64,000 nucleotides of DNA from a virus, in IMG/VR virus record IMGVR_UViG_3300006893_000001. One strand, 5' to 3'. This document shows positions 2,787 to 62,672 of this stretch, piece by piece. Below the pieces are notes generated by a model. That model was given only the letters and a program-made list of their open reading frames with translations. It was not told where the DNA came from and did not search any database. The position numbers and the translations under genes were made by a program. Positions within the stretch are counted from its first letter, which is position 1; each line of letters starts with the position of its first letter.

Positions 2787-2790
2787 GTTC

Positions 2791-8583: not shown

Positions 8584-8703
8584 ATGTTAGCAACAATCAT
8601 TCAATACGTAATCATCGGCTTTGGCTTCGGGATTGGATTCGCTCTCGGAACTGGACTCGTTGGTGCGGTGCTTAGTCTCACGAATCGTAAGGGTAACAAG
8701 TGA
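8584..8703 (+). CDS. Gly-rich membrane peptide (39 aa)
   Basis: VIIGFGFGIGFALGTGLVGAVL; GTGA overlap with the next gene. Confidence 0.4.
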   Translation: MLATIIQYVIIGFGFGIGFALGTGLVGAVLSLTNRKGNK

Positions 8704-9722: not shown

Positions 9723-10693
9723 TGCAAGCACCATTTGAGACCGGCTTCGGGGAGCTTGACGAGACTCTTAAAATAGTCTTGGCACCGAGCCTTGCTCGTA
9801 ATGGTCCACCGAAACCACCTTTACCATTTGGCTTCCGATGGGAACATGTTCGTGAGACAGGCGACGTAATCCAGTATTGTCTTATGAGCGTGTGCCGCCA
9901 AGAAATTATTCAATCAAGCTTCGTCATCAATGCGCGAAGTATTGGATTCGCGGATAGTGGACTGCTGCCATACGACGAACTTTGCCAACTTGTTCAACAT
10001 AATATGCAGCAAGCTGTGCTTGAGGTGTTACGCCGCTTCCAAACAGAGTCTGAAGCGCTGTATAACTGTCTCGCCGCTTGTGTGCAATATTGGAATCAGG
10101 GTCTTGAACCTGCTATAATACGACAGTCATATCGCGAAGGCGCGTTGCAACACATACCCCACGCGACACCGTCACCGAACGAACATGTGTATCGCCAAGG
10201 CGAAATTCACGAACGCACTATTCATGATAACTTGACGCATGCGTATCGCAACCTTAGGTTCATTACAAGTGACCCAACTCGAGACGTCAATGTCTACAAC
10301 ATCTGGAGCAACGAGCGCGTTGCAGTTATTCGGATTCAAGACTTTTTGACCGAAGAGCAGATAATTGCAAATTGTGACCAACTCAACGAAGTCAACTCGC
10401 CTGACCGTACGTACAATCGCATGTGGCAGTGGGCAACCTTCCCGAACGGCACCATTGACCCCGCTGCGCCATTGAACTTGAATCCATTTCCACGTATTCG
10501 CATTCGACGTCCACAGGACCGTTTAGGTATGCGTCTCGCTGTGTTCAACCCTAACAACGAGAGTGACTTCTGCCACGTGGAGATGGTTCAATCACGCGAG
10601 GACATTTTACGTAACTTGTTACGTTGCCAGACCGCGGTGGATAATGGCTTAATTTTACGTACTAAAATACAAGAATATGAAGTTGGCGTCTGA
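9722..10693 (+). CDS. hypothetical protein (323 aa)
   Basis: Long ORF, coupled on both sides; no motif recognised. Confidence 0.7.
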   Translation: MQAPFETGFGELDETLKIVLAPSLARNGPPKPPLPFGFRWEHVRETGDVIQYCLMSVCRQEIIQSSFVINARSIGFADSGLLPYDELCQLVQHNMQQAVLEVLRRFQTESEALYNCLAACVQYWNQGLEPAIIRQSYREGALQHIPHATPSPNEHVYRQGEIHERTIHDNLTHAYRNLRFITSDPTRDVNVYNIWSNERVAVIRIQDFLTEEQIIANCDQLNEVNSPDRTYNRMWQWATFPNGTIDPAAPLNLNPFPRIRIRRPQDRLGMRLAVFNPNNESDFCHVEMVQSREDILRNLLRCQTAVDNGLILRTKIQEYEVGV

Positions 10694-11739: not shown

Positions 11740-13089
11740 TTGCCGCAACTGGAAATTCACGGCTATCATGGCTCAAATGCCCTGCATCTTTTAGGCCGTG
11801 GCGAAGTTCTCGACCCAAAGATTCCCCACTTCGGAATAGAGCTCGAAATGAATCCAGGACCCGATACAAATCGGGCCTCGCTTATGACTGAGCTTTATGC
11901 AAAATTCCACGGGACTGATGGTCGAGCATCCAGGTCGTTTACATGCCAACGCGATGGCTCTGTTCCAAACGGCATCGAAATCATCAGCCGCCCGCTTACG
12001 TTCCAAGCGTCCCTCGAGTTCTTAGACGACCTGCTACCGTTGCAGAATGGTACCGACGAATATCAGCGTCTTCGTGCGTGCGGAATGCATGTCCATATAT
12101 CACGTAGTGCTTTGTCTCAGAATCAGCTCGGGCGTATGGTGCTATTCGTGCACAGTCCACCGATGTTCGACTTCATGAGCAGAGTGGCTCGTCGTCAACT
12201 AACTAATCATTTTTGCCGCGCAGGTCAAAAGAGGTCGTGGTTGCAAGGGTTTACGGAGTTAACGCCACACCAACGTCAGGCAGTTAAGACTCGCATAACT
12301 GGCCTTGATTATCGAGGACGGATACAAAATCATGGAAAGTATCAAGCGCTGAACACAGAACGGCGCGACACAATTGAAGTCAGAATGTTTGCATCTACGA
12401 ATGACCCATTATATGCTAAGTCGAACATTGAGTTCTGCGAGGCGATGCTGACATACTGCAAGCCTATGGTGAGTCCACTCAAAGATTTAGTGATACCGCA
12501 CAAGTTCATCGATTTCGTGACTAGTAATCGGATGGCGTATCCTAGTCTCTCTGAGCGCTTCGGTTATCGAGACCGCTTCGGCGAGTTCTATGAGTTTCCA
12601 GTGACAGCATCAGGTCGTCCACGCAGACCACGAACCGACGTATCTGGACTGCCACGCGGTCAGCGTACTATGAGAATCACTCCAGCAGGACTTGAAGGAC
12701 ACGACGCTGAAGTAGCAGCAGCATTACGTTTTAACACAGAACGACTGGCAACTGAAGCAGCTATGAACTTAGACAGGTCAATAGCAGCGAGTATGGTTGC
12801 AACAAGTCAGCATCCAAGGTATCGTCGAGCCACGGTTCCGGCGGCGCGACGAATGCCTGGTATAGTGGACTTCGGAGTAGCACTTGGCGGAGGCTCGCGC
12901 CCACATACTACAGAGATTCGAGCATACGTTGCTGAGCATGGAATGCCGGTAGGATATAGACGACGTCGCGAATACCTCGAGTGGTACCGGCAACTATGCA
13001 ACAACAGATTTGTCACGGCTCGTGGCAATGTCTTGACGGGTGACGAACTCAGCCGTCGAGCAATTGAGCGCTTGCGTTGCGCTAGGTAA
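11740..13089 (+). CDS. Amidoligase_2-type carboxylate-amine ligase, paralog 2 (449 aa)
   Basis: TTG start after AGGAAGGGG; FGIELEM, DGSVPNGIEIISRP, CGMHVHIS, TIEVRMFASTN. Confidence 0.8.
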   Translation: MPQLEIHGYHGSNALHLLGRGEVLDPKIPHFGIELEMNPGPDTNRASLMTELYAKFHGTDGRASRSFTCQRDGSVPNGIEIISRPLTFQASLEFLDDLLPLQNGTDEYQRLRACGMHVHISRSALSQNQLGRMVLFVHSPPMFDFMSRVARRQLTNHFCRAGQKRSWLQGFTELTPHQRQAVKTRITGLDYRGRIQNHGKYQALNTERRDTIEVRMFASTNDPLYAKSNIEFCEAMLTYCKPMVSPLKDLVIPHKFIDFVTSNRMAYPSLSERFGYRDRFGEFYEFPVTASGRPRRPRTDVSGLPRGQRTMRITPAGLEGHDAEVAAALRFNTERLATEAAMNLDRSIAASMVATSQHPRYRRATVPAARRMPGIVDFGVALGGGSRPHTTEIRAYVAEHGMPVGYRRRREYLEWYRQLCNNRFVTARGNVLTGDELSRRAIERLRCAR

Positions 13090-13100
13090 GAAAGGAAACT

Positions 13101-14060
13101 ATGTGCGTTATTATTGTTAAACCAGTCGACAAGCAAGTCGAGTTCAAGACTTTGCGGCAAGCCAACAAGGCTAATCCGCATGGCTGGGGTGTGCTTGCGA
13201 AGACTCCTGAAGGAATGGTTGTGACCAAAGGCTGGTCTGGCACCAAACTATGCGAAGCTTATGCGAAGTATAAGCAATATGAGCAAGTCATCCACTGCCG
13301 TATAGGAACCTGTGGTATCCTCGACGAACGCAACATCCACCCATTTGCGGTGGACGACGCTTCGACTACCTACTTGTTTCATAACGGCGGTATGCTGAAC
13401 GTCAACCGGCATAACCCGGACTTCAATGACACGTGGCATTTTGCACGATTGATTCAGAAGCCTGTGGAGAAATATCCAGACCTTTTGGAAAATCCGGAGT
13501 TCTACAAGTACTTGCAGGAGTTTGCCGGTGGGTCTCACAAGTTCGTCATCGTGACCGCGGGCAAAACTGTGATTGTCAACGAAGGCCTTGGCCGGTGGGT
13601 CAACGGATGCTGGCACTCGAATATGTCGGCTCTACAGTGTCGCGCGCAAGTCAAACCACGGTGGCAGAAGCAAATCAATAACAATCTACGCTACTTCAAC
13701 AACTTAACGCCGCTCAACACAGATGTGCCACATCTGATAGACGATTGGACACCAGACTCAGGTCCATGGTACGACGGGCTTACGAACATCGAACAGGACT
13801 TTGTCCATAAGACTATCGTTGCAAACCATAGTCAAGTTGACGGATACGAACGCTACATCGAAACCATCAAGAACGCTCGCGATGAAGTCTTTCGGCTTCG
13901 TATGCAGGCAGCCACAGAGACGAATATGGTCTCACCAACGCAGCTTCCGCTCGTGGCGTTGCGTTCCGCGGGTCGACGTAATAGATTCAAACGAGGAAAT
14001 CGTCCTACTAAAACATCGGCCATTGTGCCGGTAGAAGCGAGAATCGTATATGGAGACTAG
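13101..14060 (+). CDS. class II (Ntn, Cys1) GAT-like thiol peptidase, paralog 2 (319 aa)
   Basis: MCVIIVKP, NPHGWG, HCRIGTCG..IHPF, LFHNG; GAAAGGAAA SD. Confidence 0.8.
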   Translation: MCVIIVKPVDKQVEFKTLRQANKANPHGWGVLAKTPEGMVVTKGWSGTKLCEAYAKYKQYEQVIHCRIGTCGILDERNIHPFAVDDASTTYLFHNGGMLNVNRHNPDFNDTWHFARLIQKPVEKYPDLLENPEFYKYLQEFAGGSHKFVIVTAGKTVIVNEGLGRWVNGCWHSNMSALQCRAQVKPRWQKQINNNLRYFNNLTPLNTDVPHLIDDWTPDSGPWYDGLTNIEQDFVHKTIVANHSQVDGYERYIETIKNARDEVFRLRMQAATETNMVSPTQLPLVALRSAGRRNRFKRGNRPTKTSAIVPVEARIVYGD

Positions 14061-14526
14061 AGCATTCGGCATTGACTACTTCGGCTTCGGCGATAAGCAA
14101 GAGGATGTGCTAGAGCTTATCAAACTAAACGGCGATAAGCGAATCCCACAGTCGACAGTGGATTTCTACAAGAATCCCGATGGTTCGGGTGTAGTGGTTC
14201 GCGCCTTCTATCAAGGACGACTCATTGGCTTCAGCGCCTCAGCACTAATGGAGCCAGGACACTCTATCACAGTCATTGACCGCGACTTCCGTGGTTGGGG
14301 AATAGGCTCGTCTCTGCTTGCCAAGAAGCTGCGCCTCTGCCGCACAAAGGCATACGTGGCTGAGGATAACGCTGGTTCCATCCGAATCTGTGAACGGGTT
14401 GGAATGGTGGTTACTGGTCGGCGACTTGGGCGTCGACAATCAGGTGACTTCACACAAGTCGTCTATGAGTTCAAGTCTAAGAAGGGAATTATGGCATGGC
14501 TCGAAAAGTTACTACCGACGGGTTAA
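14050..14526 (+). CDS. GNAT-family N-acyltransferase
   Basis: Acyl-CoA motif A FRGWGIGSSLL; overlaps upstream gene by 11 nt. Confidence 0.75.
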   Translation: METRAFGIDYFGFGDKQEDVLELIKLNGDKRIPQSTVDFYKNPDGSGVVVRAFYQGRLIGFSASALMEPGHSITVIDRDFRGWGIGSSLLAKKLRLCRTKAYVAEDNAGSIRICERVGMVVTGRRLGRRQSGDFTQVVYEFKSKKGIMAWLEKLLPTG

Positions 14527-14756
14527 GCGTCAAAGAAGCTGCGTTTGTAACGTTTCTGAATAACTTCAGAGCGCCAAAGCTTGAGTACTTCACTGTTCCT
14601 TGGGGCCGCGATGAGTTTATGTCATACTACGAGAAGCGTAGACTTGACCCAGCCAAGGTCGATGAATGGGTCGATATGGCAATTCGATACGCCTGCGATG
14701 GCAGGACCATTGAAGAGTACGCGAAGATATGGAGAAAACGCAATGTCCCTGCCTGA
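14496..14756 (+). CDS. hypothetical protein (86 aa)
   Basis: ORF track; overlaps both neighbours. Confidence 0.5.
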   Translation: MARKVTTDGLSVKEAAFVTFLNNFRAPKLEYFTVPWGRDEFMSYYEKRRLDPAKVDEWVDMAIRYACDGRTIEEYAKIWRKRNVPA

Positions 14757-15282
14757 TTACTTCGAACAAGGCAGCTATCGGTATCTATTAACTCGAACAC
14801 TGCCAGATGTTCCGCTTGCATTCTCGAAGGAACGAACACTGCTCTACATCATGCTAAATCCATCTACCGCGGATGATACGGTTGATGACCCGACAATACG
14901 GCGCTGCGTAGGACAGGCTCGAGCGTGGGACTTCAACCGCATTCGGGTCGTGAATTTGTTTGCTCAGCGAGCCACAAATCCAAAGGACCTCGAGCCCGTA
15001 TCCTCAGTAGGCATGCACAACGACTCAATTATGCACCGAGTTTTAGATGAAGTTGACATGGTTGTAGCCGCTTGGGGAAACCCTGTTGGGAAGTTCAGAA
15101 AGCAGATGAAGATTGACTTCGGGATACAGGTGGCTAGTACCATTAGGACAGTAACGGAACGCATGGACTTATACTGCCTCGAGGTTCTACGGTCAGGCCA
15201 GCCCAAACATCCGCTGTATTGTCGTCGAAAAGAGAGGGGTTTACTTTACCAACGCAAAAGGGTAGAATCGGTCCTAGTGTAG
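14743..15282 (+). CDS. DUF1643-family protein
   Basis: Start trimmed to MSLPDYF; YRYLLTR, LYIMLNPSTAD, DPTIRRC, VNLFA, AAWGN, PKHPLY match the DUF1643 pattern. Confidence 0.75.
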   Translation: MSLPDYFEQGSYRYLLTRTLPDVPLAFSKERTLLYIMLNPSTADDTVDDPTIRRCVGQARAWDFNRIRVVNLFAQRATNPKDLEPVSSVGMHNDSIMHRVLDEVDMVVAAWGNPVGKFRKQMKIDFGIQVASTIRTVTERMDLYCLEVLRSGQPKHPLYCRRKERGLLYQRKRVESVLV

Positions 15283-21643: not shown

Positions 21644-21801
21644 TGCCTCGACCTGATAATATTCGATCGTGCGATTGGCCTGAAGATTATTCTCATGAAA
21701 ACGGGAACTATGAGTGCGAATGTTGTTATTGCCATGTTCACTTCAAGGGGCATAAACGACGTGTTGTTTGCAAAGTTTGTGCAGAACGGAGAAAACGATG
21801 A
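21643..21801 (+). CDS. Cys-rich small protein (52 aa)
   Basis: TAATG and ATGA coupling; CECCYCHVH...CKVC. Confidence 0.4.
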   Translation: MPRPDNIRSCDWPEDYSHENGNYECECCYCHVHFKGHKRRVVCKVCAERRKR

Positions 21802-22238
21802 GACCATCATGGGACGAAACGTTTCTTAGGGTTTGCGAAATCATGAAGGAGCGTGGTACATGTCAGCGACTCCAAGTTGGTGCTGCAGTTGTCAAAGGTT
21901 GTCGTATCATCTCGACGGGATACAACGGCGCACCCAGAAGCCTTGAGCATTGTCATCACGATTTGTATAATGGCCATGCACAAGACGACCCACATTTAGT
22001 AGGTGGACATTGTGCTAACGCAGAACACGCTGAGTCCAATGCACTAATGGTTGCGGGCGAACGAGCTGACGGAGCGACGCTCTACTCCACCGTGAGTCCC
22101 TGCCTCAATTGCATGAGACTCGCCGTCACCGCGGGCATCAAGCGTATCGTATTCGCTGAATGGTTCCGCAAGACAGAACCATCTAAGGCTTTAGCCGCAG
22201 CTGCAGGAATCCAATTGTCGCATGTCCTCATCCCGTAA
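21798..22238 (+). CDS. dCMP deaminase (CMP/dCMP zinc deaminase family)
   Basis: Start trimmed to MRPSWDETF; HAESNAL and PCLNC zinc-binding motifs. Confidence 0.85.
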   Translation: MRPSWDETFLRVCEIMKERGTCQRLQVGAAVVKGCRIISTGYNGAPRSLEHCHHDLYNGHAQDDPHLVGGHCANAEHAESNALMVAGERADGATLYSTVSPCLNCMRLAVTAGIKRIVFAEWFRKTEPSKALAAAAGIQLSHVLIP

Positions 22239-23945: not shown

Positions 23946-24275
23946 ATGAAACCGAGGGTCTATGCCCTTAACTATCTTGGGCACGATATTTCTGACGCCG
24001 AACGCTTCACCGACGAACCAGTTATTTTTCTCACCGAAGGTTCCGTCAATATCTTCTACCCAGACCGACTTGCTTACGACATTGCGAAGAAGCTCCACGA
24101 TTTCCAACAAGACGATTACATCCTCATCTCCGGTTCACCCGTCATCGCGATGATTGCTATGGGTGTACTTAAGGAGACGTTTAAGTTTAAGACCATCAAT
24201 GTTCTCATCTACAACGTCAAGAAGGGCGAATATGTAGCTCGCCGAATCTCTGGAGCAGTGGCGCGTGGATACTAA
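23946..24275 (+). CDS. hypothetical protein (109 aa)
   Basis: ORF track. Confidence 0.6.
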   Translation: MKPRVYALNYLGHDISDAERFTDEPVIFLTEGSVNIFYPDRLAYDIAKKLHDFQQDDYILISGSPVIAMIAMGVLKETFKFKTINVLIYNVKKGEYVARRISGAVARGY

Positions 24276-24780
24276 TCGAGACTATATGACGGAGCAAGTC
24301 TTAGACGTAACCGGAGAGTTCCCAGACCAAGCATTCGACCTTGCAGATGAAGTCGAGGAAGAAGCTCCACTTGACGTCGACCCAACTAACGAACCGGCAC
24401 TGCACGCCGACCTCGTAGCATTGAAGGCTGCAAAAACTAAGAAGTCTCAGTTGGAGTTGGACCTTAAAGTCTGCAACAAAGAGCTTGAGACGCTTAGACT
24501 TCGCATCACAACTGTGTTCGAAGCTCGCGGCATTACGAATATGCGCGTCACCGGTGTTGGCATGGTCTACTCGAAAGAGGACTTGTATTGCACTGTCGTC
24601 GACAATGAAGGTTTGAATAAGTGGCTTGCTGACCGCGGTGAAGATGCTCTTATCAAACACGCTGTAAACCCACAAACGTTGAAGGCGTATTTGAAGGAGC
24701 GTCGCGAAGGTGGACTCGACCTTCCGCCAGAGGCAGTCATTAAGATTTACGAGCAGAAAAACGTGGCACTACGCAAATGA
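24265..24780 (+). CDS. acidic coiled-coil protein, possibly Gp157/Gam-like
   Basis: Acidic N-terminus, coiled coil, then a beta-rich C-terminus; family assignment is weak. Confidence 0.55.
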   Translation: MDTNRDYMTEQVLDVTGEFPDQAFDLADEVEEEAPLDVDPTNEPALHADLVALKAAKTKKSQLELDLKVCNKELETLRLRITTVFEARGITNMRVTGVGMVYSKEDLYCTVVDNEGLNKWLADRGEDALIKHAVNPQTLKAYLKERREGGLDLPPEAVIKIYEQKNVALRK

Positions 24781-25085
24781 AAGGTGACCGTTCGACGTAC
24801 ATGTGGCATTGCGATGACGAATACTGCGACTGTTCGCGTCCTATAATTGTTGAAGATACCGGCAACGTGCTCGCAATACATTTACCTAAAGCAGGTAATT
24901 TGTTCAGAACCATATACGACGGCGAATGGGTATCTGAATGTGATGGTCCGGATTACGTAGACTATATAGACCAGCTTTCTAAATGGAAAGAAGCCTGTAT
25001 AGAGTTCGAAGTAGAATTTCCTAAAGATGCCGAGAGAAAACTGTGCTATTATCAAAATCAAGTCGCTCGCGGTGTACATCTATGA
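24777..25085 (+). CDS. hypothetical protein (102 aa)
   Basis: ORF track; ATGA coupling. Confidence 0.55.
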   Translation: MKGDRSTYMWHCDDEYCDCSRPIIVEDTGNVLAIHLPKAGNLFRTIYDGEWVSECDGPDYVDYIDQLSKWKEACIEFEVEFPKDAERKLCYYQNQVARGVHL

Positions 25086-25276
25086 AGATTCGGCTGAATC
25101 CTGTCATCTACGTACTGCTGGTGTTTTACGCAGTCGTCGCAACCATTATCTTCTACCCAACAGAGTATCAAATCGCTGAGTCACTATCTGATAAAATCGT
25201 TTCACACTTCTATCCGCAATTAAAAGACACATTCACGACGAACTTACATATCAAAGGAGTAAACCGTAATGACTAG
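25082..25276 (+). CDS. small membrane protein (64 aa)
   Basis: Start trimmed to ATGA-coupled MKIRLNPVIYVLLVFYAVVATIIF. Confidence 0.45.
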   Translation: MKIRLNPVIYVLLVFYAVVATIIFYPTEYQIAESLSDKIVSHFYPQLKDTFTTNLHIKGVNRND

Positions 25277-26090
25277 AAATAACGAAAACCTCGCTGTGCG
25301 TCCTGGTGCAGCTTTGGCGAATGCTGAAATCGCCGAAATGCTCGGGCAAGAAGGCGCACAAGGACTTGAGAACGTTGGCGCTGACGAAATCCAGCTTCCA
25401 CGTCTCGCAGTTCTTCAACCTATGTCACCACTTGTGACCGATAACAAGGCACGCGCTGGTGAAATCGTCAACCTATTGACTGGTGACAACTATGGCAAAG
25501 AGTGCTTCATGTATCCACTCTTGTACTGGACTTCTCGCACACAGTGGGCTTCGAAGGAGCTTAACAGCGAAATCGAATGCCAGGCACGAGACGGTATCCA
25601 CGGAACTAATAAAGACGTCGCTCACGCTGGCGGCAACTGCGCAATGTGTCCGATGGCTAAGTGGCACGAGGACAAGGCGCCGCGTTGCACGCAGTTCAAG
25701 AACATCCTACTCATCCCGTTCAACGACCCCGCTTCGCTCGGCGACTCAGTGCCAGCTGTTTACAGCGGCAAGCGTGCTAGCATTCAGCCCGTCAACAAGT
25801 TCCTATCCGCAGCCATCGCTCTTCGCTTGAACGGTAAGAAGATGCCGCTGTGGTCGTCGCTCTATAAGCTTTCAACGAAGAAGGAGCAAAACGACAAGGG
25901 TACATACTACATGCCCGTCATCGAGCGTGTAGGGTATATCGAATCCAAAGAGGTGTTTGGTTATCTGAAGGAGACCTACGCTCAGATGAAAGACGCCTTT
26001 GACCGCATGATTGTCACAGTGGCAGACGAGACACCTGAAGAAGGCGTTGACCGTCCAGCCGACGTTCATGCAGAAAGTGAAGAGTTCTAA
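25269..26090 (+). CDS. possible ssDNA-binding/annealing protein with acidic C-terminal tail
   Basis: Ends ...PADVHAESEEF (acidic tail with terminal Phe, as in SSBs); CxxC...C cluster; sits in the recombination-type neighbourhood. Confidence 0.6.
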   Translation: MTRNNENLAVRPGAALANAEIAEMLGQEGAQGLENVGADEIQLPRLAVLQPMSPLVTDNKARAGEIVNLLTGDNYGKECFMYPLLYWTSRTQWASKELNSEIECQARDGIHGTNKDVAHAGGNCAMCPMAKWHEDKAPRCTQFKNILLIPFNDPASLGDSVPAVYSGKRASIQPVNKFLSAAIALRLNGKKMPLWSSLYKLSTKKEQNDKGTYYMPVIERVGYIESKEVFGYLKETYAQMKDAFDRMIVTVADETPEEGVDRPADVHAESEEF

Positions 26091-26097
26091 CGTGTTG

Positions 26098-26298
26098 ATG
26101 AAACTAATTCTCGGTCTTGGAGCTATTCTAGTCGTACTTGCCATCGTTGTGGCGGGCGTATCACTCGACGGGTATCTTCTGCACCTAGCATCGCCGGTTC
26201 CAATGTCGTTTGAATACGGCGTGCGATTGACAGTGTGCGTCATGCTCTTGACATTCATTGTGAAAGGCATCTGGACAATTGGTCAGAAAAACTCTTAA
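26098..26298 (+). CDS. two-helix membrane protein (66 aa)
   Basis: Start trimmed to MKLILGLGAILVVLAIVVAGV. Confidence 0.45.
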   Translation: MKLILGLGAILVVLAIVVAGVSLDGYLLHLASPVPMSFEYGVRLTVCVMLLTFIVKGIWTIGQKNS

Positions 26299-26752
26299 CG
26301 ACTTAGCGGCGCTTCCTTCGAATCCATGGGTGCAGATGGTCCGTGAGTTCCACGAGAACCATCTGCCTTCTCCACCACCTAAGTCGCTACATCAACTCTC
26401 AGCCCAGGAACGTCTCGATGAAATCGCATCTATCGGGTCAGAGTACTTCGAATTGGTCGAAGCTATGCGCCAGGGCGATATTGTTGAATCTATTGACGCG
26501 CTATGTGACGTCATCTACGTCGCCATTGGCATTGGCCTTCGCCATGGAATCGATATCACCGCAGCTTTTGATGAGGTCCATGCGTCGAATCGTGAGAAAT
26601 TGAAAGCAGCACCTGGTACAATGGGTCGCGGTGACGGTAAAGGTGGTGGCATAAAGCCGCCAGGTTGGGTAAAACCTCGTATCAAGGAAATTATCGTTGC
26701 TCAAGCGGAGCGCGAACTTGTAAAGGAAATGCAAAACAATGTCACCAGTTGA
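26279..26752 (+). CDS. MazG-like all-alpha NTP pyrophosphohydrolase
   Basis: VREFHENH, EYFELVEA, IDALCDVIYVAIG, AFDEVHASNREK; start uncertain (TTG 26279 or ATG 26336). Confidence 0.6.
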   Translation: MVRKTLNDLAALPSNPWVQMVREFHENHLPSPPPKSLHQLSAQERLDEIASIGSEYFELVEAMRQGDIVESIDALCDVIYVAIGIGLRHGIDITAAFDEVHASNREKLKAAPGTMGRGDGKGGGIKPPGWVKPRIKEIIVAQAERELVKEMQNNVTS

Positions 26753-27080
26753 TTTAGTATTCGAGTTTGGGCCGTGCGATTTAACACGAGCCTTAGCGTA
26801 TGCGTCTGCAGGTCTTGTGTGTTCGACTCAGACAAGACAAAGTAAAAACGTTATGTATTTACTCCGCGCTGTTCATCAACGACCATCCAAGACAATTATT
26901 CATTTAGTTGCTATGTGCGATTTTCGTCGTGACAACGATGGTGGCCCTGGATGCGACCCGTATGACTTTGACCGTGACGACGGTAAAAGTAAGCGAGTCG
27001 CCTTGGCAAACGCGTTATTCGTTAATTTTGGCGACTGTTTGCATCATACCGCTTGCTACGAAGACGGGGTAGACCACTAA
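26739..27080 (+). CDS. hypothetical protein (113 aa)
   Basis: ORF track. Confidence 0.5.
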   Translation: MSPVDLVFEFGPCDLTRALAYASAGLVCSTQTRQSKNVMYLLRAVHQRPSKTIIHLVAMCDFRRDNDGGPGCDPYDFDRDDGKSKRVALANALFVNFGDCLHHTACYEDGVDH

Positions 27081-27721
27081 TGTTAGTATTAGAAGGCGGC
27101 GATTTAGCCGGTAAAACAACTCTTGGTGCAATGCTCGCGAAGACGTATGGCGTTGAAATGGTCCACATGTCCGCGCCTAAGGACGGCGAGCGAGACTTCG
27201 CAAACGTTGCTAAGGTAATCCTCGGCAATCCGAATAACCTCATCGTAGACCGCATGGCTCTCGGTGATTTTGCGTATCGGTCATTCTGGCCGCGTGAACC
27301 GCAAACAACACAACAAGAGCTTGAGTGCTGGCTCAAATATTTGACGCTGAGCCAATCGTATATCGTTTTTGCAGACCCAACCGATGAAACAATCGAGCAG
27401 CGCTACAATGCTCGTGGTGACGAGTTCTTGACTCTCGATAAGATTCTTATCGCGGCCAATAACTATCGTGGCATCTTTGAGAGCATCTACGAGTCGTCCA
27501 ATTTTCGTCGCGTACTCATCTACGATTCAGGTACGTATAGCCCAGATGGTTTCTTGCAGCGCTACGAATCAGCAATCAATGAAGCTATCCTAACTGCAGA
27601 CATTCCGTTTGACCTAGCTTACGATGTGCTTCATGACAACGAAGCTACGACAACAGAAGTTAGCCGACCAACCGAAGACGACCCCGTCGCTCAAGGAGTT
27701 GACCCGGCGGCATTGCTCTAA
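27080..27721 (+). CDS. P-loop dNMP kinase (thymidylate-kinase-like fold)
   Basis: Start trimmed to TAATG-coupled MLVLEG; Walker A GGDLAGKTT; IVDRMALGDFAY. Confidence 0.7.
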   Translation: MLVLEGGDLAGKTTLGAMLAKTYGVEMVHMSAPKDGERDFANVAKVILGNPNNLIVDRMALGDFAYRSFWPREPQTTQQELECWLKYLTLSQSYIVFADPTDETIEQRYNARGDEFLTLDKILIAANNYRGIFESIYESSNFRRVLIYDSGTYSPDGFLQRYESAINEAILTADIPFDLAYDVLHDNEATTTEVSRPTEDDPVAQGVDPAALL

Positions 27722-28774
27722 ATGCAATACGCTCCTCGAGTATTCTCGTCATCGGGCGCTGCGCATCTAATGCGCGACGTCCTTGTCGAGTTGCTCAGCG
27801 AGAAGTATCCGCCAGGTAATAAGGGCACACTCTCTGAAATGCGTGGAACAACGCTTATCATGCACTCACCGGCGTGCAATCTGGTCGCGTCGCCAACTCG
27901 CAAGTTCAACTATGCCTACAATCTTATGGAGTCCATCTGGAACTTAACTGATACTCGTGAGCTTTATGCTCTCAAGCTGTTTAATAGCAAGATTGAGAAC
28001 TTCGTCCAAGACCAGGACGAGTGGAATAGGGATGAAGCAACATGGGCATACGGTCCGTATTCGAATCCTCAAATGCGTTGGGTTATGCGCGAGTTGCTCC
28101 AAGACTCAGGCAGTCGCCGAGCGAACATCAGCGTCGTAACCGGAGACGCGCTAGAATATGGTGGACTCGCCGGCACACCGCCTTGTCTAGTATCAAGTCA
28201 ATTCTTGATTCGGGACGGATGGCTGCATCAATTTGTCACGATGCGTTCGAACGACGCGTGGCTAGGACTACCTCTCGACCTGATGCAATTTTCGTTCTGG
28301 GGTCAGATGCTCTCGGCATACCTCAGCATACCGTTCGGCTCGTACACACATCATGTTGCGTCGTTGCACCTATATCGGAGAGATGTGGAAGCAGCGCAGA
28401 AGTTCATCGACGGCGGCTTGGCGGACTCGCATATTGGTGGGATAACATCGATGGTGACGCCACCTCCGGGCAAGAACGCCCTGCCAGAAGTTCTCGATGG
28501 TTTGGCATACGGCGTAATTGTGGGCGACCTACCAATTGAAGTTCTCAGCGAAGATGGCATCAGGGGTCACGTAAGCATGCTCGTTGGTGGTATAATGCCT
28601 TACGGGTATCAGTGGATGAAAAAGCACGGACATGGCATCGGATGGCCAAAGCCTGCTATGAGACTCTACACCTCAACCGGTTCGCCACTACATGGCGAGG
28701 GCATCGTCACCAACGACGAAGGAAGTTCATGCGAACCTACAATCGATTCAACCTCGACTCAAGTCCAGAACTAG
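27722..28774 (+). CDS. ThyA-fold pyrimidine C5 transferase, predicted dCMP-specific (hydroxymethylase or methylase)
   Basis: Aligns without gaps to the E. coli ThyA core: PPC(L)..QF..DG..RS.D..LGLP(L)D; Asp replaces the specificity Asn (E. coli N177); LHLY; about 100-aa C-terminal extension. Confidence 0.7.
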   Translation: MQYAPRVFSSSGAAHLMRDVLVELLSEKYPPGNKGTLSEMRGTTLIMHSPACNLVASPTRKFNYAYNLMESIWNLTDTRELYALKLFNSKIENFVQDQDEWNRDEATWAYGPYSNPQMRWVMRELLQDSGSRRANISVVTGDALEYGGLAGTPPCLVSSQFLIRDGWLHQFVTMRSNDAWLGLPLDLMQFSFWGQMLSAYLSIPFGSYTHHVASLHLYRRDVEAAQKFIDGGLADSHIGGITSMVTPPPGKNALPEVLDGLAYGVIVGDLPIEVLSEDGIRGHVSMLVGGIMPYGYQWMKKHGHGIGWPKPAMRLYTSTGSPLHGEGIVTNDEGSSCEPTIDSTSTQVQN

Positions 28775-30795
28775 TCGACACTCTTCTTAAGGACGTTCGT
28801 GTCTGCGGCCGTATCGCAGTTGACACCGAGACATTCGGTGACCGTCCGCTCATCCTCAAAGAGAAGTACGCAGGTCTACGATGGTCACTCGGCGACCATC
28901 CGTTTATGTGCCAATTCGCTGCAAGTTCCTCGACGGCGTACATAACGTATAAACCGGAGACTGCGAAGCGAGTTCTCGAAGGCGCGTGGAATCTTGAAGA
29001 GCCATACTTCCTGTTTCACAATGCTAAGTTCGACCTGCACATGCTTCGTTGTTGGCCAGGGTGCGACTGGATTCCAGGCGGGGATTACGACAATTTAGTT
29101 GAGCCACGCATTCGTATCCAAGATACCATGCTTTCGTACTCCATCCTGTACCCAGGCAAGCGCAAAGCGTTGAAGATTGCGTCCAAGGATTTCGTCACTG
29201 ACCTAGACGTTGATGGGCCACAGAAACGCGTTGAGCAAGCTATGACACGGATTCGCTCTGAGCGCCGTACTCGAGTTGGCCGTGGCAAGTGGATGATGGG
29301 TAAACCTGTAACATTCAAAGACGTACCTCCTGAAATCATGGAGCCGTACGCGACGCAGGACGTCATTCTGACACTTCTAATGGACGACGCTCTTGAAGCT
29401 GCTTGGGTAACTAAGAGCGACAAACTTCGCGAAAACTATGAAATCGAACTCAAACTTCTTCCACTGCTTATTCAAATGGAGAAGGCTGGCGAAGACATCG
29501 ATGAAGTCGAACTTAAGCGTCAACTGCTTGAAGCTGAAGAGCAGCGCAGCGTATGGCGCGACAAGCTCGCTACGTTCACTGACGCTGACCCGAATAAGCC
29601 CGTCGAACTGAGACGTTATCTGTACACAGACCCAGCGGGTCTTCGAGAAGAAGTCAAATTCAAGACTGATTCAGGTGAACCGTCCACTGACGAACTTTCG
29701 CTCCGCTCCTTGAAAAACAAAGAAGTATCTGACGTTCTGCTGCACTGGCGCTGGTGGAACAAGGCACACTCGAAACTCAACGAACTGTCAGCGTTCTGCA
29801 TAAACGGTAAGGTTTACTGCGATATGAAGCAAGACGGAGCTAAGACAGGTCGGTTCTCAGCCGTGGCTCCTGCACTTCAGAATATCCCGCGATACGACCC
29901 AGCGAAGCCTTGGGCCCAGTGTCGTCGTATCTTCCGTGCCGCCGGTGGGTACATATCACTTTACATCGACTACTCGGCTATTGAGATGCGCATTTTTGCA
30001 GACTTCTCGAAAGACGCGGGTCTCATCAAGACCTTCAACGAAGGCGGTGACCCGCACAAGTATGTCACCTCGCTTATGTACGGAATTGCTCAAGAAGTCG
30101 TTACGAAGCTGCAGCGCGACTTTGGTAAGACTATGAGCTTCACCATCTTGTATGGCGGCGGACAGAATCGAGTGTACGAAGCCTTGGCGTTCGGCGCAGC
30201 AGCGTCCGACCCACTTCCAATCGAAGAAGCGGCGCATGCCTTGTGCGAGCTTCGGCCTGAAGCTGCGCGAGACGAAGAGATGATGGCGTTGCCGCACCGC
30301 TTCCTCGCAAAAGCTCTCATCGACGCGTATTATACAGCTATCCCAGCGTCTAAGGAGTTCAAAAACGAAGTCATTGGGGTTGTTAAGACGCGTAGCAGAC
30401 CTGTGGACCCGAAGTATCCCGCGTACAAGGGTCGTGGGTACGTAGTCACGAAGTTTGGCCGCGAGGTCACGGTTCCACCCGAAGCGAGTCATATCGCTGT
30501 CAACGCTTTGATTCAAGGCACCGCCTCCGATATGCTGAAACGCGCGCTGCTCATAGCATACAAGGAGTGCAAGGAGTTCTGCCGCTTCAATGAGCTTAAG
30601 ATGTGGGAAGATGTACAGATGAACCTGTCAATCCACGACGAAATCAAGTTCCGTCTGCGAGATAATATTCCACCTAAAAACTTTGTGACTCAGCTCGAAG
30701 GTCCGCTCACGGTGTGGCCGGAGTTCAAAGACGTCAAGTTCAAAGTAGAAGCTAAGTTTGGTGGCAACTGGGCTGAAACGGAGAAAGTAGCATGA
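28729..30795 (+). CDS. family A DNA polymerase with 3'-5' exonuclease domain
   Basis: Start trimmed to MRTYNRF after GAAGGAAG; AVDTETFG; DYSAIEMRIFA; RDFGKTMSFTILYGGG; SIHDEI. Confidence 0.9.
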   Translation: MRTYNRFNLDSSPELVDTLLKDVRVCGRIAVDTETFGDRPLILKEKYAGLRWSLGDHPFMCQFAASSSTAYITYKPETAKRVLEGAWNLEEPYFLFHNAKFDLHMLRCWPGCDWIPGGDYDNLVEPRIRIQDTMLSYSILYPGKRKALKIASKDFVTDLDVDGPQKRVEQAMTRIRSERRTRVGRGKWMMGKPVTFKDVPPEIMEPYATQDVILTLLMDDALEAAWVTKSDKLRENYEIELKLLPLLIQMEKAGEDIDEVELKRQLLEAEEQRSVWRDKLATFTDADPNKPVELRRYLYTDPAGLREEVKFKTDSGEPSTDELSLRSLKNKEVSDVLLHWRWWNKAHSKLNELSAFCINGKVYCDMKQDGAKTGRFSAVAPALQNIPRYDPAKPWAQCRRIFRAAGGYISLYIDYSAIEMRIFADFSKDAGLIKTFNEGGDPHKYVTSLMYGIAQEVVTKLQRDFGKTMSFTILYGGGQNRVYEALAFGAAASDPLPIEEAAHALCELRPEAARDEEMMALPHRFLAKALIDAYYTAIPASKEFKNEVIGVVKTRSRPVDPKYPAYKGRGYVVTKFGREVTVPPEASHIAVNALIQGTASDMLKRALLIAYKECKEFCRFNELKMWEDVQMNLSIHDEIKFRLRDNIPPKNFVTQLEGPLTVWPEFKDVKFKVEAKFGGNWAETEKVA

Positions 30796-31280: not shown

Positions 31281-31657
31281 GAATCATTGCAATCCGCTTT
31301 GAAGACCTTGATGAGAGTCAAGTCAACGATATTCGCTGGGACATCGAACAACTACTTAACGAGAAGATAGGCTCGTACGCTTATCGAATTGCTTCAGGAC
31401 TAGAAGATGACCCACTAGATTTCGGCGGGGACTCTGAAAAGCCTGGTGACCGTCAGATGTGGTTCTTCAAGAAGATGCTTGGAGACCTTTCTGCGTTCTA
31501 CTACAAAACTGAAAAGATAATACCGGACCATCCACACCTGTCACAAGCTAAAACGGTGCTACAGGTCGCGGTTGAAGAAACAGAAACGATGGATAAGATG
31601 CGCTGCAGTCAGCTCATCGACGCCATGAAAGAAGTTCTAGGAGAGCTTAGAACATGA
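31277..31657 (+). CDS. hypothetical protein (126 aa)
   Basis: ORF track; coupled. Confidence 0.6.
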   Translation: MRIIAIRFEDLDESQVNDIRWDIEQLLNEKIGSYAYRIASGLEDDPLDFGGDSEKPGDRQMWFFKKMLGDLSAFYYKTEKIIPDHPHLSQAKTVLQVAVEETETMDKMRCSQLIDAMKEVLGELRT

Positions 31658-31995
31658 GCGGACAATTCAGAATTGCATCACCTGGTCAACCCGGCATCGT
31701 AGAGCCAGTTGTCTCTACAGAGCTGAAGCTTTGCACTAAGTGCTTCACCAACCCACGAGTCAACTACGCAAATTGCAATCATACCTGGTGCCGAGTTTGC
31801 TTGAGCGCCGATGCTAAGGCTCGCCGTCAGGCAGCTGCGACTCCAACTACAACTGAGAATACATCGGCTAATGCTATATTGACTCGTTTAGAAAATGAAT
31901 TAGCAACCGAAGGAACCGACGCTACAGTTTACGAAGTACCAATGCCTACAACGCCGCCGATACGAAAACCAAGGAAGGTAAAAATAGATGAGTGA
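31654..31995 (+). CDS. zinc-finger-like hypothetical protein (113 aa)
   Basis: CTKC...CNHTWCRVC. Confidence 0.55.
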   Translation: MSGQFRIASPGQPGIVEPVVSTELKLCTKCFTNPRVNYANCNHTWCRVCLSADAKARRQAAATPTTTENTSANAILTRLENELATEGTDATVYEVPMPTTPPIRKPRKVKIDE

Positions 31996-32539
31996 AGTTC
32001 TTACAGTCGGGCGAGTAGAAGCTTTAGACAATAATCCGCCATCTCATAGACCAGTGGAGCGACGTATCGTCACAAGTCGCTGCTCCAACAATCCGCGCCG
32101 CTTTTACATTGCTGGCGACCTTCGCAAAGCATCGTTCATTCACGAGTTAGCCGATACACTGGTGAACCTAGGCATGGAACCAACGTATCCGTGGTGGAAT
32201 AATACGGCTATGCGTCAAGGCGCAGCTCTCAAAGACCTCGCAGCTATGGAAGTTCGTGGTGTAACCGAAGCTGATGACTTCATTGGCATTCTGCCTGGAC
32301 GTCGCGGTTCAGCGTCCGAGCTAGGTATGGCCATTGCAGCTCACAAGCTAACTCGCAAGCCGCACCGCATCCTTCTATGGACAGACAACGAAGAGATGCT
32401 TACTAAGCGCACTGAAGAGCTTGATAGCTATAACATCTTCTGGCATGCACCGGGTGTCCGAGTCGCAGTCAGCGATACACCTGTTGCAACAATTCTGTTT
32501 GAACTTTATGGGCGCGAACCCAAAGGATTAGTCCTATGA
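31988..32539 (+). CDS. second nucleoside 2-deoxyribosyltransferase-like protein
   Basis: RRFYIAGDL, GRRGSASELGMAIAA pattern. Confidence 0.45.
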   Translation: MSEVLTVGRVEALDNNPPSHRPVERRIVTSRCSNNPRRFYIAGDLRKASFIHELADTLVNLGMEPTYPWWNNTAMRQGAALKDLAAMEVRGVTEADDFIGILPGRRGSASELGMAIAAHKLTRKPHRILLWTDNEEMLTKRTEELDSYNIFWHAPGVRVAVSDTPVATILFELYGREPKGLVL

Positions 32540-34038: not shown

Positions 34039-34126
34039 CGTAGCCTTCACAATAGGACTGATTGGTACGATAGTTTCGGCTGTTGCGCTTATCATTCTTG
34101 CAATATACGAAAGGAATAAACGATGA
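34025..34126 (+). CDS. single-pass membrane peptide (33 aa)
   Basis: FTIGLIGTIVSAVALIILAIY; ATGA coupling to the GGCT gene. Confidence 0.4.
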   Translation: MQPVDVAFTIGLIGTIVSAVALIILAIYERNKR

Positions 34127-34671
34127 TTAGACTATTCACCTACGGCACACTGATGCGCGGCGAAGGTAACTACCATCGTATGGAAAAGCAAACGTTCCTT
34201 AGTCGTGGCCGCACCGAAGGTCGACTATTCACCAATGAGTCTTATCCATACTTCCGTCCCGGACGGAACCAAGGTACGGTACTTGGTGAAATCTTTGAAA
34301 TTGACGACCAATGCCTCGCAGGTCTAGACTCAATGGAGCTCAATTCTGGGTATACCCGTGAAACGATTTTGGTCGACCTGTACGATGTTGCGGACTGCCG
34401 TGTAATGACGATAGAATGCCAAGTTTACGTTGGACCAGAACGCGTCGAGCAGCAATATCGTCTAATCGAGGACGGTAACTATTCTAAGGACAATGCACGA
34501 GTTCGCGAAGAGCAACGCCTGGACCCAGATGAATGCGAAGGTTGCCAGATAGAACAAGACGATAACATTGAGTGGGCTTGTGCAGCGTGTGGGCAATGCG
34601 GAGATTGCTGTGGAGATAGAGACAATCCGCTCTCATGCGAACACGCTGCTATGGGTTCAAGTTATGGATAG
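34123..34671 (+). CDS. gamma-glutamylcyclotransferase (GGCT/AIG2-like) with Cys-rich C-terminal tail
   Basis: FTYGTLMRGEGN, YPYF, VLGEIFEI; tail CEGCQ...CAACGQCGDCCGD. Confidence 0.75.
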   Translation: MIRLFTYGTLMRGEGNYHRMEKQTFLSRGRTEGRLFTNESYPYFRPGRNQGTVLGEIFEIDDQCLAGLDSMELNSGYTRETILVDLYDVADCRVMTIECQVYVGPERVEQQYRLIEDGNYSKDNARVREEQRLDPDECEGCQIEQDDNIEWACAACGQCGDCCGDRDNPLSCEHAAMGSSYG

Positions 34672-61867: not shown

Positions 61868-61891
61868 GGAAAGACTCCTTTCTGAGTCTGA

Positions 61892-62614: not shown

Positions 62615-62672
62615 TGTCTATTCATCCTTTTTGGCCATGGGCCAAATCATTTGGTGGGACTTATTCCCTCGG

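Follow-up and report, generated by a model that had tools for sequence, protein, structure and literature searches.

Replacement of cytosine by a C5-modified base is a known anti-restriction strategy. The hallmark of cytosine-modified metavirome contigs is a combination of Thymidylat_synt with N177D, dCMP_cyt_deam_1/MafB19-deam, PRA-PH and DNA_pol_A (Yang et al. 2021 eLife, PMC8670742; bioRxiv 10.1101/2024.12.05.627091). The same Pfam set, with Asp at position 177, is encoded in the 64-kb stretch of DNA analysed here (the window), from an uncultured tailed phage, where it is also phage-borne and clustered with a polymerase gene. Hence, the logic of the pathway that we propose is already known from the published module. 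The locus differs from that module in that the deaminase gene lies 5.5 kb upstream of ThyA rather than within 3 kb, and in that the ThyA homolog belongs to a rare subfamily whose active site fits neither of the two published classes, the 5mdC class and the predicted 5hmdC class. The block at 26279-30795, together with the deaminase gene, most likely represents a pre-replicative cytosine-replacement pathway, and it is highly probable that virion cytosines are C5-modified by this route. The original prediction that cytosine in the virion is C5-modified is therefore supported in its general form by the published Pfam set and N177D, but only partly in its T4-like, 5-hydroxymethylcytosine (5-hmC) form.

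That prediction likened the locus to the enzyme set of phage T4 (gp42, gp1, gp56, cd and the glucosyltransferases). The likeness stands only by analogy, in that both systems would combine dCTP depletion, C5 modification by a ThyA-fold enzyme with Cys and Asp, a phage kinase and a phage polymerase. However, the kinase and the MazG-like protein are not homologs of gp1 and gp56: the kinase is YorR-like and matched no T4-like phage, and sequence comparison detected no similarity between the MazG-like protein and gp56. T4 gp42 is itself distant from the ThyA homolog (17.6 bits), with Asp145 and Ser94 of gp42 replaced by Thr152 and Trp108, and glucosyltransferase, td and frd genes were not found in the window.

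The top solved structure for the ThyA homolog, both by sequence (E=7e-18) and by fold, is the CMP 5-hydroxymethylase MilA of Streptomyces rimofaciens (PDB 5b6d/5jnh). A fold search with the AlphaFold model (pLDDT 84.8) ranked MilA first, with ~311-320 aligned columns (chain A entries). The match includes the C-terminal helical domain, and residue numbering is near-identical (Cys155, Asp186, His216, Tyr218). MilA differs in having Ala176/Lys133 (ribose preference) in place of Ser176/Arg132, Asp three residues before the catalytic Cys (Cys-3), and Thr two residues before the Tyr equivalent to Tyr110 (Tyr-2); moreover, it serves antibiotic biosynthesis, not DNA modification. The VPE25/VFW phage module (kinase, ThyA homolog, dUTPase-like protein, beta-glucosyltransferase) also has a YorR-like kinase gene directly upstream of an Asp-type ThyA gene, and VPE25 DNA resists bisulfite conversion and shows cytosine modification. 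The VPE25 ThyA differs in retaining Asp (Cys-3) and Ser (Tyr-2), and its gene is followed by a glucosyltransferase gene; our locus shows neither trait.

The Xp12/PaMx74 module (NTP-PPase gp53, ThyA gp52, cd gp51, frd gp50) shares with the locus Asp177 and a homologous NTP-PPase and deaminase. Position 143 is non-acidic in both, with Asn in PaMx74 and Thr in the ThyA homolog. The MazG-like protein is 31% identical to gp53, which adjoins the 5mC-type ThyA of PaMx74, and the deaminase is 38% identical to PaMx74 cd. In contrast, the PaMx74 ThyA is a canonical-clade thymidylate synthase (TS), ~30% identical to T4 td-like enzymes and 21% identical to the ThyA homolog. PaMx74 also has a DHFR gene (frd) beside its module, whereas the window and the neighbourhoods in related phages yielded none, and no YorR-like kinase was found in the 50 kb of PaMx74 examined. 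Lastly, the flavin 5-hydroxy-dCMP synthases (RB69 gp48, DLP3 gp80, HY126 AfhB; PDB 9iqc/9iqu) share the ThyA fold and Asp177, and are among the PDB matches. Their diagnostic D169N is not found here; because the equivalent Asp178 is retained, this identity was ruled out in favour of a folate-type enzyme.

The MazG-kinase-ThyA-PolA operon and the deaminase

Table 1. Genes of the proposed pathway, with the ORF inside the operon (window coordinates)
Feature	Coordinates	Strand	Details
dCMP-deaminase-family zinc deaminase	21798..22238	+	PF00383 E=3.7e-21; MafB19-deam E=3.4e-13
MazG-like (PRA-PH) NTP pyrophosphohydrolase	26279..26752	+	PF01503 E=1.8e-11; phrog_671 E=1.3e-23
113-aa ORF inside operon	26739..27080	+	called as gene on ENA contig
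YorR-like P-loop nucleotide kinase	27080..27721	+	213 aa; longest ORF from TTG 27053
ThyA homolog	27722..28774	+	350 aa; predicted ThyA-fold, folate-type, dCMP-specific C5 one-carbon transferase; Thymidylat_synt E=7.6e-13
Family A DNA polymerase with 3'-5' exonuclease (PolA)	28729..30795	+	DNA_pol_A E=2.3e-53

The ThyA, kinase, MazG-like and deaminase genes that had been predicted were all found at or near their expected positions (Table 1), and the proposed association of ThyA with a dedicated nucleotide kinase and NTP pyrophosphatase proved to be one operon, with a polymerase gene, conserved in six phage lineages. The kinase and MazG-like genes do not flank ThyA, as had been stated: both are upstream, with the 113-aa ORF between them, and polA follows ThyA. 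This ORF has no Pfam or PHROG match and no counterpart at related loci. Each of the six related lineages has a PRA-PH gene upstream of its kinase-ThyA pair; the gene adjoins the pair in L093, L094 and L095 and is ~4.6 kb from it in L089/L090. The polA gene, whose call overlaps the 3' end of ThyA, is the last gene of the conserved block and is directly downstream of ThyA in L003, L089-L091, L093, L094 and L095. Among 80 IMG/VR viral loci, the kinase gene is present in 57 and adjoins an Asp-type ThyA gene in 39; it does so also in Enterococcus phage VPE25.

The true start of the kinase gene is probably the ATG at 27080, not 27053. Its family profile matches SPbeta YorR (PDB 2axp; E=2.9e-29), followed by dNK and thymidylate kinases, and family members carry Pfam Thymidylate_kin (29/41) or dNK (17/41) matches. 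The kinase was accordingly placed in the thymidylate-kinase/dNK superfamily. The P-loop GK and a DR motif are invariant in the family. Identity as a 5-hmdU DNA kinase was rejected: PF18748 is lacking and similarity to PaMx11 gp49 and SP10 gp186 is confined to the P-loop.

In the proposed pathway, the MazG-like enzyme, whose top PDB match is the dUTP-specific MazG-like enzyme DR2231 (E=5e-9), would cut dCTP (and/or dUTP) to the monophosphate, excluding canonical C and feeding the ThyA homolog. Cys155 of the latter would attack C6 of dCMP, with Asp186 recognising the cytosine N3/N4 face, and the methylene of 5,10-methylene-tetrahydrofolate would be moved to C5, as expected from the chemistry of the family. 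The kinase would then convert the modified dCMP to its diphosphate and host NDP kinase would complete the triphosphate. The co-transcribed PolA presumably incorporates this modified dCTP, and C in virion DNA would thereby be replaced by the modified base.

The dCMP deaminase assignment was confirmed by PF00383 and by the presence of HAE and PCxxC motifs. Its PDB matches are the dCMP deaminase of S. mutans (5e-21), T4 cd (1.6e-17) and the PBCV-1 enzyme (3e-7), and among relatives' neighbourhoods a deaminase gene was found only in L095. Candidate roles are conversion of dCMP to dUMP, as for T4 cd, or deamination of modified-cytosine nucleotides for dTTP, as in 5mC phages.

Predicted substrate specificity of the ThyA homolog

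All core TS catalytic residues are kept in the ThyA homolog. The gap-free active-site alignment described originally, with the nucleophilic Cys, Arg-Ser pair, Asp and H.Y motif, was reproduced with HMMER and MAFFT: Cys155-Asp186 aligns with C146-N177 of E. coli ThyA without relative gaps. The equivalent residues (ThyA homolog=E. coli) are C155=C146, R175/S176=R166/S167, D178=D169, D186=N177, H216/Y218=H207/Y209, E70=E58, Y110=Y94 and R132/R133=R126/R127. Alignment with ThyA, T4 gp42 and SPO1 gp29 also bore out the presence of Asp rather than Asn at the pyrimidine-specificity position, with Asp186 equivalent to Asn177 in E. coli ThyA and Asp179 in T4 gp42. Asp186 is not a chance occurrence, being shared without exception by our sequence and its 17 nearest homologs in the databases (together an 18-member subfamily) and by 79/79 related IMG/VR genes.

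Across eight enzymes, characterised or annotated, the residue at the N177 column follows substrate: T4 gp42, VPE25 and the ThyA of the 5mC phage PaMx74 have Asp, and E. coli ThyA and the dUMP hydroxymethylases SPO1 gp29, SP10 and PaMx11 have Asn. Asp at this position thus supports a predicted specificity for cytosine, and the deoxyribose-type residues Ser176/Arg132, which separate dCMP enzymes from MilA, support a predicted specificity for deoxyribose.

Could the enzyme instead act on dUMP supplied by the deaminase, either as an ordinary TS or by hydroxymethylating dUMP for thymidine hypermodification? Phages with hypermodified thymidine rely on a ThyA homolog and a kinase, a dCMP deaminase is encoded in the window, and amidoligase, GATase and GNAT genes are found in the same genome. 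Nonetheless, we regard this as very improbable: every dUMP enzyme compared has Asn where Asp186 is invariant, base preference is switched by D179N in T4 dCH and by N177D in TS, and neither 5-HMUDK nor aGPT-Pplase was found in the window. The suggestion that the amidoligase/GNAT genes decorate DNA found no support, since further viral contigs carry the amidoligase-GATase cassette without ThyA in the flanks, and the fetched neighbourhoods of related phages lack it.

Candidates for the predicted modified base

We estimate the chance that the modified base is 5-hmC as about even. The exocyclic-methylene intermediate would most likely be resolved by water to yield 5-hydroxymethyl-dCMP; this is suggested by the MilA/VPE25 hydroxymethylase-like clade and not by a catalytic Asp, which the ThyA homolog lacks. 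Sequence scores and fold rank group the ThyA homolog with enzymes of the hydroxymethylase type (83 bits for the Manatee "pyrimidine hmase"; VPE25, 76; MilA, 68; SPO1 gp29, 38), with lower scores for methyl-forming enzymes (PaMx74, 28; E. coli ThyA, 27). The nearest outgroups (P0019-P0021) keep Asp at Cys-3, and the clade is therefore ancestrally hydroxymethylase-like. By analogy, the kinase-ThyA(Asp) pair beside a beta-glucosyltransferase gene in VPE25 also supports 5-hmC, as do the kinase and the lack of DHFR in comparison with PaMx74, and a 5-hmdU-DNA-kinase helical-domain (HMUDK_hel-only) protein in two sister lineages.

However, the published hydroxymethylase signature, Asp/Glu at Cys-3 and Ser/Thr at Tyr-2 (Park et al. 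2019), is absent from the ThyA homolog, and 5-hmC should therefore not be assumed. At Cys-3, Thr152 takes the place of the Asp found in T4, MilA, SPO1, SP10, PaMx11, VPE25 and 76/79 viral relatives; at Tyr-2, Trp108 replaces the Ser/Gly/Ala of the other enzymes compared; and at Cys+1, Leu156 replaces their Thr. The T4 variant D145N is catalytically dead and makes no 5hm-dCMP. As originally stated, the 64-kb window has no glycosyltransferase in Pfam scans of ~75 ORFs, with 9.6 kb of the ~73.6-kb genome outside the window; nor was any other hydroxymethyl-dependent enzyme found.

It is possible, if doubtful, that the enzyme is a dCMP methyltransferase making 5-methyl-dCMP, as in Xp12 (Xanthomonas) and PaMx74 (Pseudomonas), and we hold 5-methylcytosine as the virion base to be a tentative prospect. 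The deaminase would convert part of the 5-methyl-dC nucleotide pool into thymidine nucleotides, so that a separate TS would be unneeded; the 64 kb yielded no further ThyA and no ThyX, which fits the 5mdCTP-to-dTTP route of Xp12/PaMx74. Loss of the water-activating Asp, together with Trp108 and Leu156, would make the pocket more hydrophobic, which tends to favour a methyl product formed with solvent kept out. A conserved GxGIGW motif closes the MilA-like helical domain, and in our sequence a 44-aa disordered tail comes after it; the conserved C-terminal Trp, with which most subfamily members end, could shut the active site much as the C-terminus does in true TS, and also leans to a methyl product. 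The PaMx74 enzyme, which forms 5mC, is likewise non-acidic at Cys-3, and the window MazG-like protein and deaminase have homologs in that phage. Furthermore, ThyA(N177D), PRA-PH, dCMP deaminase and PolA is the set described around 5mC-selective deaminases, and 5/7 ThyA homologs from such modules made 5mdCMP.

Against a methyl product, the ThyA homolog is outside the canonical TS clade of the PaMx74/Xp12 methylases, and in T4 dCH, a solved hydroxymethylase, the pterin is rotated and hydride transfer is impossible. The deaminase is absent from most sister lineages' neighbourhoods. It is nearer to the classical enzymes of S. mutans and T4 than to that of PBCV-1, the type to which the 5mC-selective deaminase was said to be structurally closest. 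The dedicated kinase, not found in PaMx74, also occurs in hmC-type contexts.

Trp108, Thr152 and Leu156 are invariant in the 18 subfamily sequences (~40% identity), a triad unlike every characterised class compared. A base other than 5-hmC or 5-mC is nonetheless unlikely. We likewise doubt that another nucleophile captures the exocyclic methylene, or that the product feeds DNA-level cytosine hypermodification via the helical-domain protein and/or amidoligase-GATase-GNAT enzymes. Both proposals draw on the absence of a signature rather than on positive evidence, and we know of no precedent in this family for resolution by neither water nor hydride. The window encodes no HMUDK_hel protein, PF18748 kinase (5-hmU-type DNA kinase) or aGPT-Pplase, and the distribution of the amidoligase-GATase cassette also argues against them. 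If true, either would parallel, for cytosine, the hypermodification of thymidine. In thymidine-hypermodification contigs, Pfam matches to amidoligase and glutamine amidotransferase have been recorded with no function assigned, and GNAT enzymes of PaMx11 act on DNA bases. In the two sister lineages that encode HMUDK_hel-only proteins, the only ThyA within the fetched flanks (<=10 kb each side) is of the Asp type, and all cultured-phage homologs of these proteins are in thymidine-hypermodifying phages, e.g. PaMx11 gp50, beside the kinase gp49.

A predicted cytosine-specific ThyA homolog in a conserved gene block

The window belongs to an uncultured myovirus that encodes a tail sheath and baseplate J. 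The genome is ~73.6 kb, of which 64 kb is the window and ~9.6 kb lies outside it. A megablast search for near-identical DNA among 50,697 phage genomes gave no match to the region, and in a protein search the family A DNA polymerase (PolA) is only ~25% identical to its best phage matches. Hence, no cultured phage is closely related to it. When 60436-64000 is compared with ENA contig ERZ27245849 k141_2110798 (73,649 bp), the window passes the end of the contig and resumes at its other end, so that the assembly is circularly permuted, representing a complete or terminally redundant genome.

The ThyA homolog is the last of four tightly packed genes in the same orientation, with the PolA gene directly downstream (see table). 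The MazG-kinase-ThyA-PolA order is kept in six lineages, comprising the window and the related phage loci L003, L089-L091, L093, L094 and L095, at 30-40% protein identity.

Features of the window discussed in the text
Feature	Coordinates	Strand	Remark
MazG/PRA-PH pyrophosphohydrolase	26279-26752	+	
113-aa ORF	26739-27080	+	no assigned function
P-loop kinase	27080-27721	+	ATG at 27080; start favoured by gene call and homolog alignment
ThyA homolog	27722-28774	+	350 aa
Family A DNA polymerase	from 28729	+	
dCMP-deaminase-family gene	21798-22238	+	
Amidoligase/GATase genes	1998-3795	-	the amidoligase, GATase-like, GNAT, DUF1643 and GGACT genes are spread over this and the next two rows
Amidoligase/GATase genes	11740-15282	+	
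Amidoligase/GATase genes	34123-34671	+	
2-Deoxyribosyltransferase-like protein	8700-9206	+	
2-Deoxyribosyltransferase-like protein	31988-32539	+	
Small ORF with RING/U-box-like match	31654-31995	+	
Three Pam3 gp32/gp33/gp34-type genes	23946-26090	+	
ClpP-like protease	59849-60562	-	head-module region, 59849-61867
Metallophosphoesterase-domain protein	60563-61867	-	434 aa; head-module region

The ThyA homolog falls in the thymidylate synthase (TS) superfamily PF00303 (Pfam Thymidylat_synt, E=7.6e-13). Its AlphaFold model (pLDDT 84.8) matches TS and MilA structures, and MilA, a Streptomyces CMP 5-hydroxymethylase, is the top PDB match by both sequence and fold. All core residues mapped to E. coli TS are present (C155, R175/S176, D178, E70 at Glu58, Y110 at Tyr94, H216/Y218 and the phosphate-binding pair R132/R133). 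HMMER and three MAFFT alignments agree that Cys155 corresponds to E. coli Cys146, Arg175-Ser176 to Arg166-Ser167, Asp178 to Asp169, His216 to His207 and Tyr218 to Tyr209. In the HMMER and MAFFT alignments, Asp186 falls on E. coli Asn177, T4 gp42 Asp179 and MilA Asp186. These results bear out the original prediction of a ThyA homolog with Asp at the pyrimidine-specificity position. Most members of its subfamily (the query and its 17 nearest database homologs) terminate at a conserved G-x-G-(I)-G-W. At this end of the window protein (28625-28774, residues ~302-350), a further 44 residues follow, which have low predicted confidence and overlap the PolA start.

The position equivalent to Asn177 sets uracil versus cytosine preference, and metavirome contigs with modified cytosine are enriched for ThyA homologs carrying Asp there (Yang et al. 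2021, PMC8670742; bioRxiv 2024.12.05.627091; Park et al. 2019). Asp occupies this column in T4 gp42, PaMx74 ThyA, VPE25 and the Manatee Spring virus “pyrimidine hmase”; Asn occupies it in E. coli ThyA and in the dUMP hydroxymethylases of SPO1, SP10 and PaMx11. Among the 17 nearest homologs and all 79 related IMG/VR genes, Asp is invariant. Judged by its sequence, the ThyA homolog thus belongs to the N177D class, predicted to be cytosine-specific.

Two other readings of an N177D enzyme were rejected. The CMP preference of MilA is due to Ala176 and Lys133, and an A176S/K133R mutant prefers dCMP. The aligned residues of the query are Ser176 and Arg132 (TS Ser167 and Arg126). This is the dCMP type, so the substrate should be a deoxynucleotide, ruling out a CMP-specific, MilA-like enzyme. 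Similarly, D169N marks flavin-dependent 5-hydroxy-dCMP synthases of the RB69 gp48 type (Lee et al. 2026). The query retains Asp178 at this position, as does every member of the subfamily. Hence, folate chemistry is expected, and a flavin-type 5-hydroxy-dCMP synthase is rejected.

Companion enzymes of the proposed nucleotide pathway

The kinase is a YorR-like member of the thymidylate-kinase/dNK superfamily, with a predicted nucleotide substrate: its family profile matches YorR best among PDB entries (2.9e-29), followed by dNK and TMPK, and 29 of 41 family members match Thymidylate_kin. The P-loop GK(S/T), the DR motif and the lid Arg are recognizable, and G11, K12, D57 and R58 are invariant. 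Among IMG/VR viral loci with an Asp-type ThyA (L003-L082), 57 of 80 have an ORF matching the kinase profile, in 39 cases within ~300 bp and on the same strand. The corresponding ORF of L002 (GenBank MW202657, ~10110-10640) is unannotated, and its counterpart in the Enterococcus phage VPE25 is annotated as a hypothetical protein. VPE25, the DNA of which resists bisulfite, has the same kinase-ThyA pair, with genes for a dUTPase-like protein and a beta-glucosyltransferase downstream. No YorR-like kinase was found in the 50 kb of PaMx74 that we examined. The tight pairing in many viral contigs suggests that modified-dNMP kinases form a large, still uncharacterised family. We also considered a split 5-hmdU-type DNA kinase in the style of PaMx11 gp49/gp50. 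This was rejected because the similarity to PaMx11 gp49 is confined to the P-loop (8.9 bits). Furthermore, the window kinase matches neither of the 5-HMUDK domains PF18748 and PF18723, both of which are matched by SP10 gp186, and the window has no HMUDK_hel homolog.

MazG is a predicted all-alpha NTP pyrophosphohydrolase of the PRA-PH type (PF01503, E=1.8e-11). It is closest to DR2231, a dUTP-specific MazG-like enzyme (5e-9 over residues 5-139), and is homologous to the PaMx74 NTP-PPase. The putative deaminase falls in the dCMP deaminase family (PF00383, E=3.7e-21). Its alignment to 2hvv includes the zinc motifs HAESNA and SPCLNC, and it is more like classical dCMP deaminases than the PBCV-1 type. 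When 50,697 phage records were searched by tblastn with the kinase, all matches were to Enterococcus or Bacillus phages and none to a T4-like phage, which gives no link to T4 gp1; a tblastn search of the window with T4 gp56 found nothing at E<=1.

The typical set of cytosine-modified metavirome contigs is Thymidylat_synt (N177D), dCMP_cyt_deam_1/MafB19-deam, PRA-PH and DNA_pol_A (PMC8670742; bioRxiv 2024.12.05.627091), and the Pfam set of the window is exactly the same. We consider it likely, from gene content and Asp186, that this phage replaces cytosine with a C5-modified cytosine by a pre-replicative nucleotide pathway. The cytosine specificity and pathway logic originally proposed are therefore upheld by Asp186 and the conserved block. 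The scan of ~75 window ORFs also agrees with the earlier statement that the window lacks a glycosyltransferase; aGPT-Pplase, 5-HMUDK, DHFR and ThyX were likewise absent. The sole DHFR-like matches, to ORF 24777-25085, were insignificant and lacked Pfam support.

The product base

What does the enzyme add to C5? According to Park et al., hydroxymethylases have Asp or Glu three positions ahead of the catalytic Cys and Ser or Thr two positions ahead of the catalytic Tyr (Ser94 in T4). The acidic residue, Asp145 in T4, activates the substrate water, and D145N is inactive. Lee et al. (2026) tell methyl from hydroxymethyl products by the position three before the Cys (E. coli Leu143). The query motifs are W108-A-Y110 and G-T152-P-P-C155-L156, and these residues are invariant in the 18-member subfamily and in its one IMG/VR member, L003. 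Hence, the subfamily has Thr in place of the acidic residue and Trp in place of Ser/Thr. Asp precedes the Cys by three residues in T4, SPO1, SP10, PaMx11, VPE25, the Manatee phage, MilA and 76 of the 79 viral relatives; the residue two before the Tyr is Ser in 47 of these relatives, Gly in 29, and Trp, Ala or Val in one each. The nearest outgroup ThyA sequences (P0019-P0021) also keep the Asp. Together, the relatives and outgroups indicate that the Trp/Thr/Leu state is derived within a hydroxymethylase-like clade. The query scores 68-83 bits against hydroxymethylase-type proteins but only 27-28 bits against TS-type, methyl-forming proteins. By overall similarity it groups with hydroxymethylases; by its residues it fits neither characterised class. 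Thus, the T4-like module originally predicted (gp42, gp1, gp56 and cd) stands with respect to the gp42-like Asp, but not with respect to gp1 and gp56, and the hydroxymethylase signature residues are absent. Such modules are known; the variant of the enzyme found here is new.

We rate the chance that the product is 5-hmC as about even. Clade membership, the MilA-like fold, the absence of DHFR and a kinase common to hmC-type contexts favour this base. It is also favoured by 5-hmdU DNA kinase-type helical-domain proteins in two sister lineages (L089:17058-18017 and L094:14899-15837; PF18723, E=3e-53). These proteins are stand-alone, with no PF18748 kinase nearby, and the Asp-type ThyA is the only ThyA homolog within the fetched flanks; PaMx11 gp50, beside the kinase gp49, is of the same stand-alone kind. 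They hint at DNA-level chemistry on hydroxymethyl-cytosine in the L089 and L094 lineages.

Formation of 5-mC is a more tentative reading. It would account for the loss of the water-activating residues, the more hydrophobic pocket and the conserved C-terminal Trp of the subfamily, and for a deaminase in a phage with no second thymidylate synthase; some metavirome deaminases are 5mC-selective and have been proposed as a source of dTTP from 5mdCTP (bioRxiv 2024.12.05.627091). The query nonetheless differs from the known 5mC route, a canonical-clade TS with N177D (Xp12/PaMx74 type). PaMx74 ThyA groups with T4 td-like TS and is 21% identical to the query (28 bits). The two share a non-acidic residue at the Leu143 position (Thr152 in the query, Asn in PaMx74).

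It is improbable that the product is something other than these two bases. Similarly, there is only an outside chance that the invariant pocket of Trp108, Thr152 and Leu156 marks a group of ThyA enzymes that act on C5 of dCMP in a new way. Such an outcome could take three forms: renewed evolution of methyl transfer within the hydroxymethylase clade; installation of a different substituent; or DNA-level hypermodification of cytosine, a counterpart of thymidine hypermodification. The third possibility is suggested by the helical-domain proteins of L089 and L094, which accompany an Asp-type ThyA, the one ThyA in the fetched flanks.

The restriction, CRISPR and modification-dependent defences that a phage can escape are determined by base replacement in its DNA, which has also supplied enzymes for epigenome sequencing, such as glucosyltransferases and 5mC-selective deaminases. 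The logic of the module is already established, and this phage is another environmental example. Current in silico rules predict the product from the residues at 177, 143 and 169. The subfamily breaks the position-143 rule: its members group with hydroxymethylases and yet have no water-activating acid. Knowing the product of the ThyA homolog would refine these rules, and might reveal a new 5mC route or a new cytosine derivative.

Candidate decoration genes and other features of the window

The original prediction named the amidoligase and GNAT genes as candidates for further decoration of the base. The window has two cassettes of Amidoligase_2 and class-II GATase-like genes, a GNAT, a DUF1643 protein, which has no match to solved structures, and a GGACT (gamma-glutamyl cyclotransferase) protein. 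Each Amidoligase_2 gene is followed by a class-II glutamine-amidotransferase-like gene, and the amidoligase/GATase/GGACT triad is partly duplicated, 13101-14060 being a divergent paralog of 1998-2786. We found the amidoligase-GATase cassette in 12 viral contigs with no ThyA in the flanks, and the fetched neighbourhoods of the sister phages do not contain it. In thymidine-hypermodification contigs, Lee et al. (2021) recorded domains of this type and assigned them no function. Given these observations, a role in DNA modification is conceivable, but the decoration proposal finds no support. Relatives encode an HMUDK_hel protein of 319 aa. The ORF at 13101-14060, also 319 aa, was considered as its counterpart and rejected, being the GATase-like amidoligase partner.

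Many window ORFs have no family match. Two that do encode nucleoside 2-deoxyribosyltransferase-like proteins. For the first, the best PDB matches are weak and fall on the CMP N-glycosidases BlsM (E=0.028) and 4jen (E=0.59); L089, L091, L094 and L095 conserve the second downstream of PolA. We speculate that a glycosidase acting on cytosine nucleotides would suit a phage that excludes cytosine. The small ORF with a RING/U-box-like zinc-finger match (E=5e-5) is of a type rare in phages. Three genes between the SNF2 helicase and MazG match Pfam families named for cyanophage Pam3 gp32, gp33 and gp34. The sister lineages and MW202657-like phages carry them at the same position; they probably have a role in replication or recombination. 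Lastly, the ClpP-like protease of the head module lies beside a protein with a calcineurin-like metallophosphoesterase domain, an odd neighbour for prohead protease and scaffold genes.
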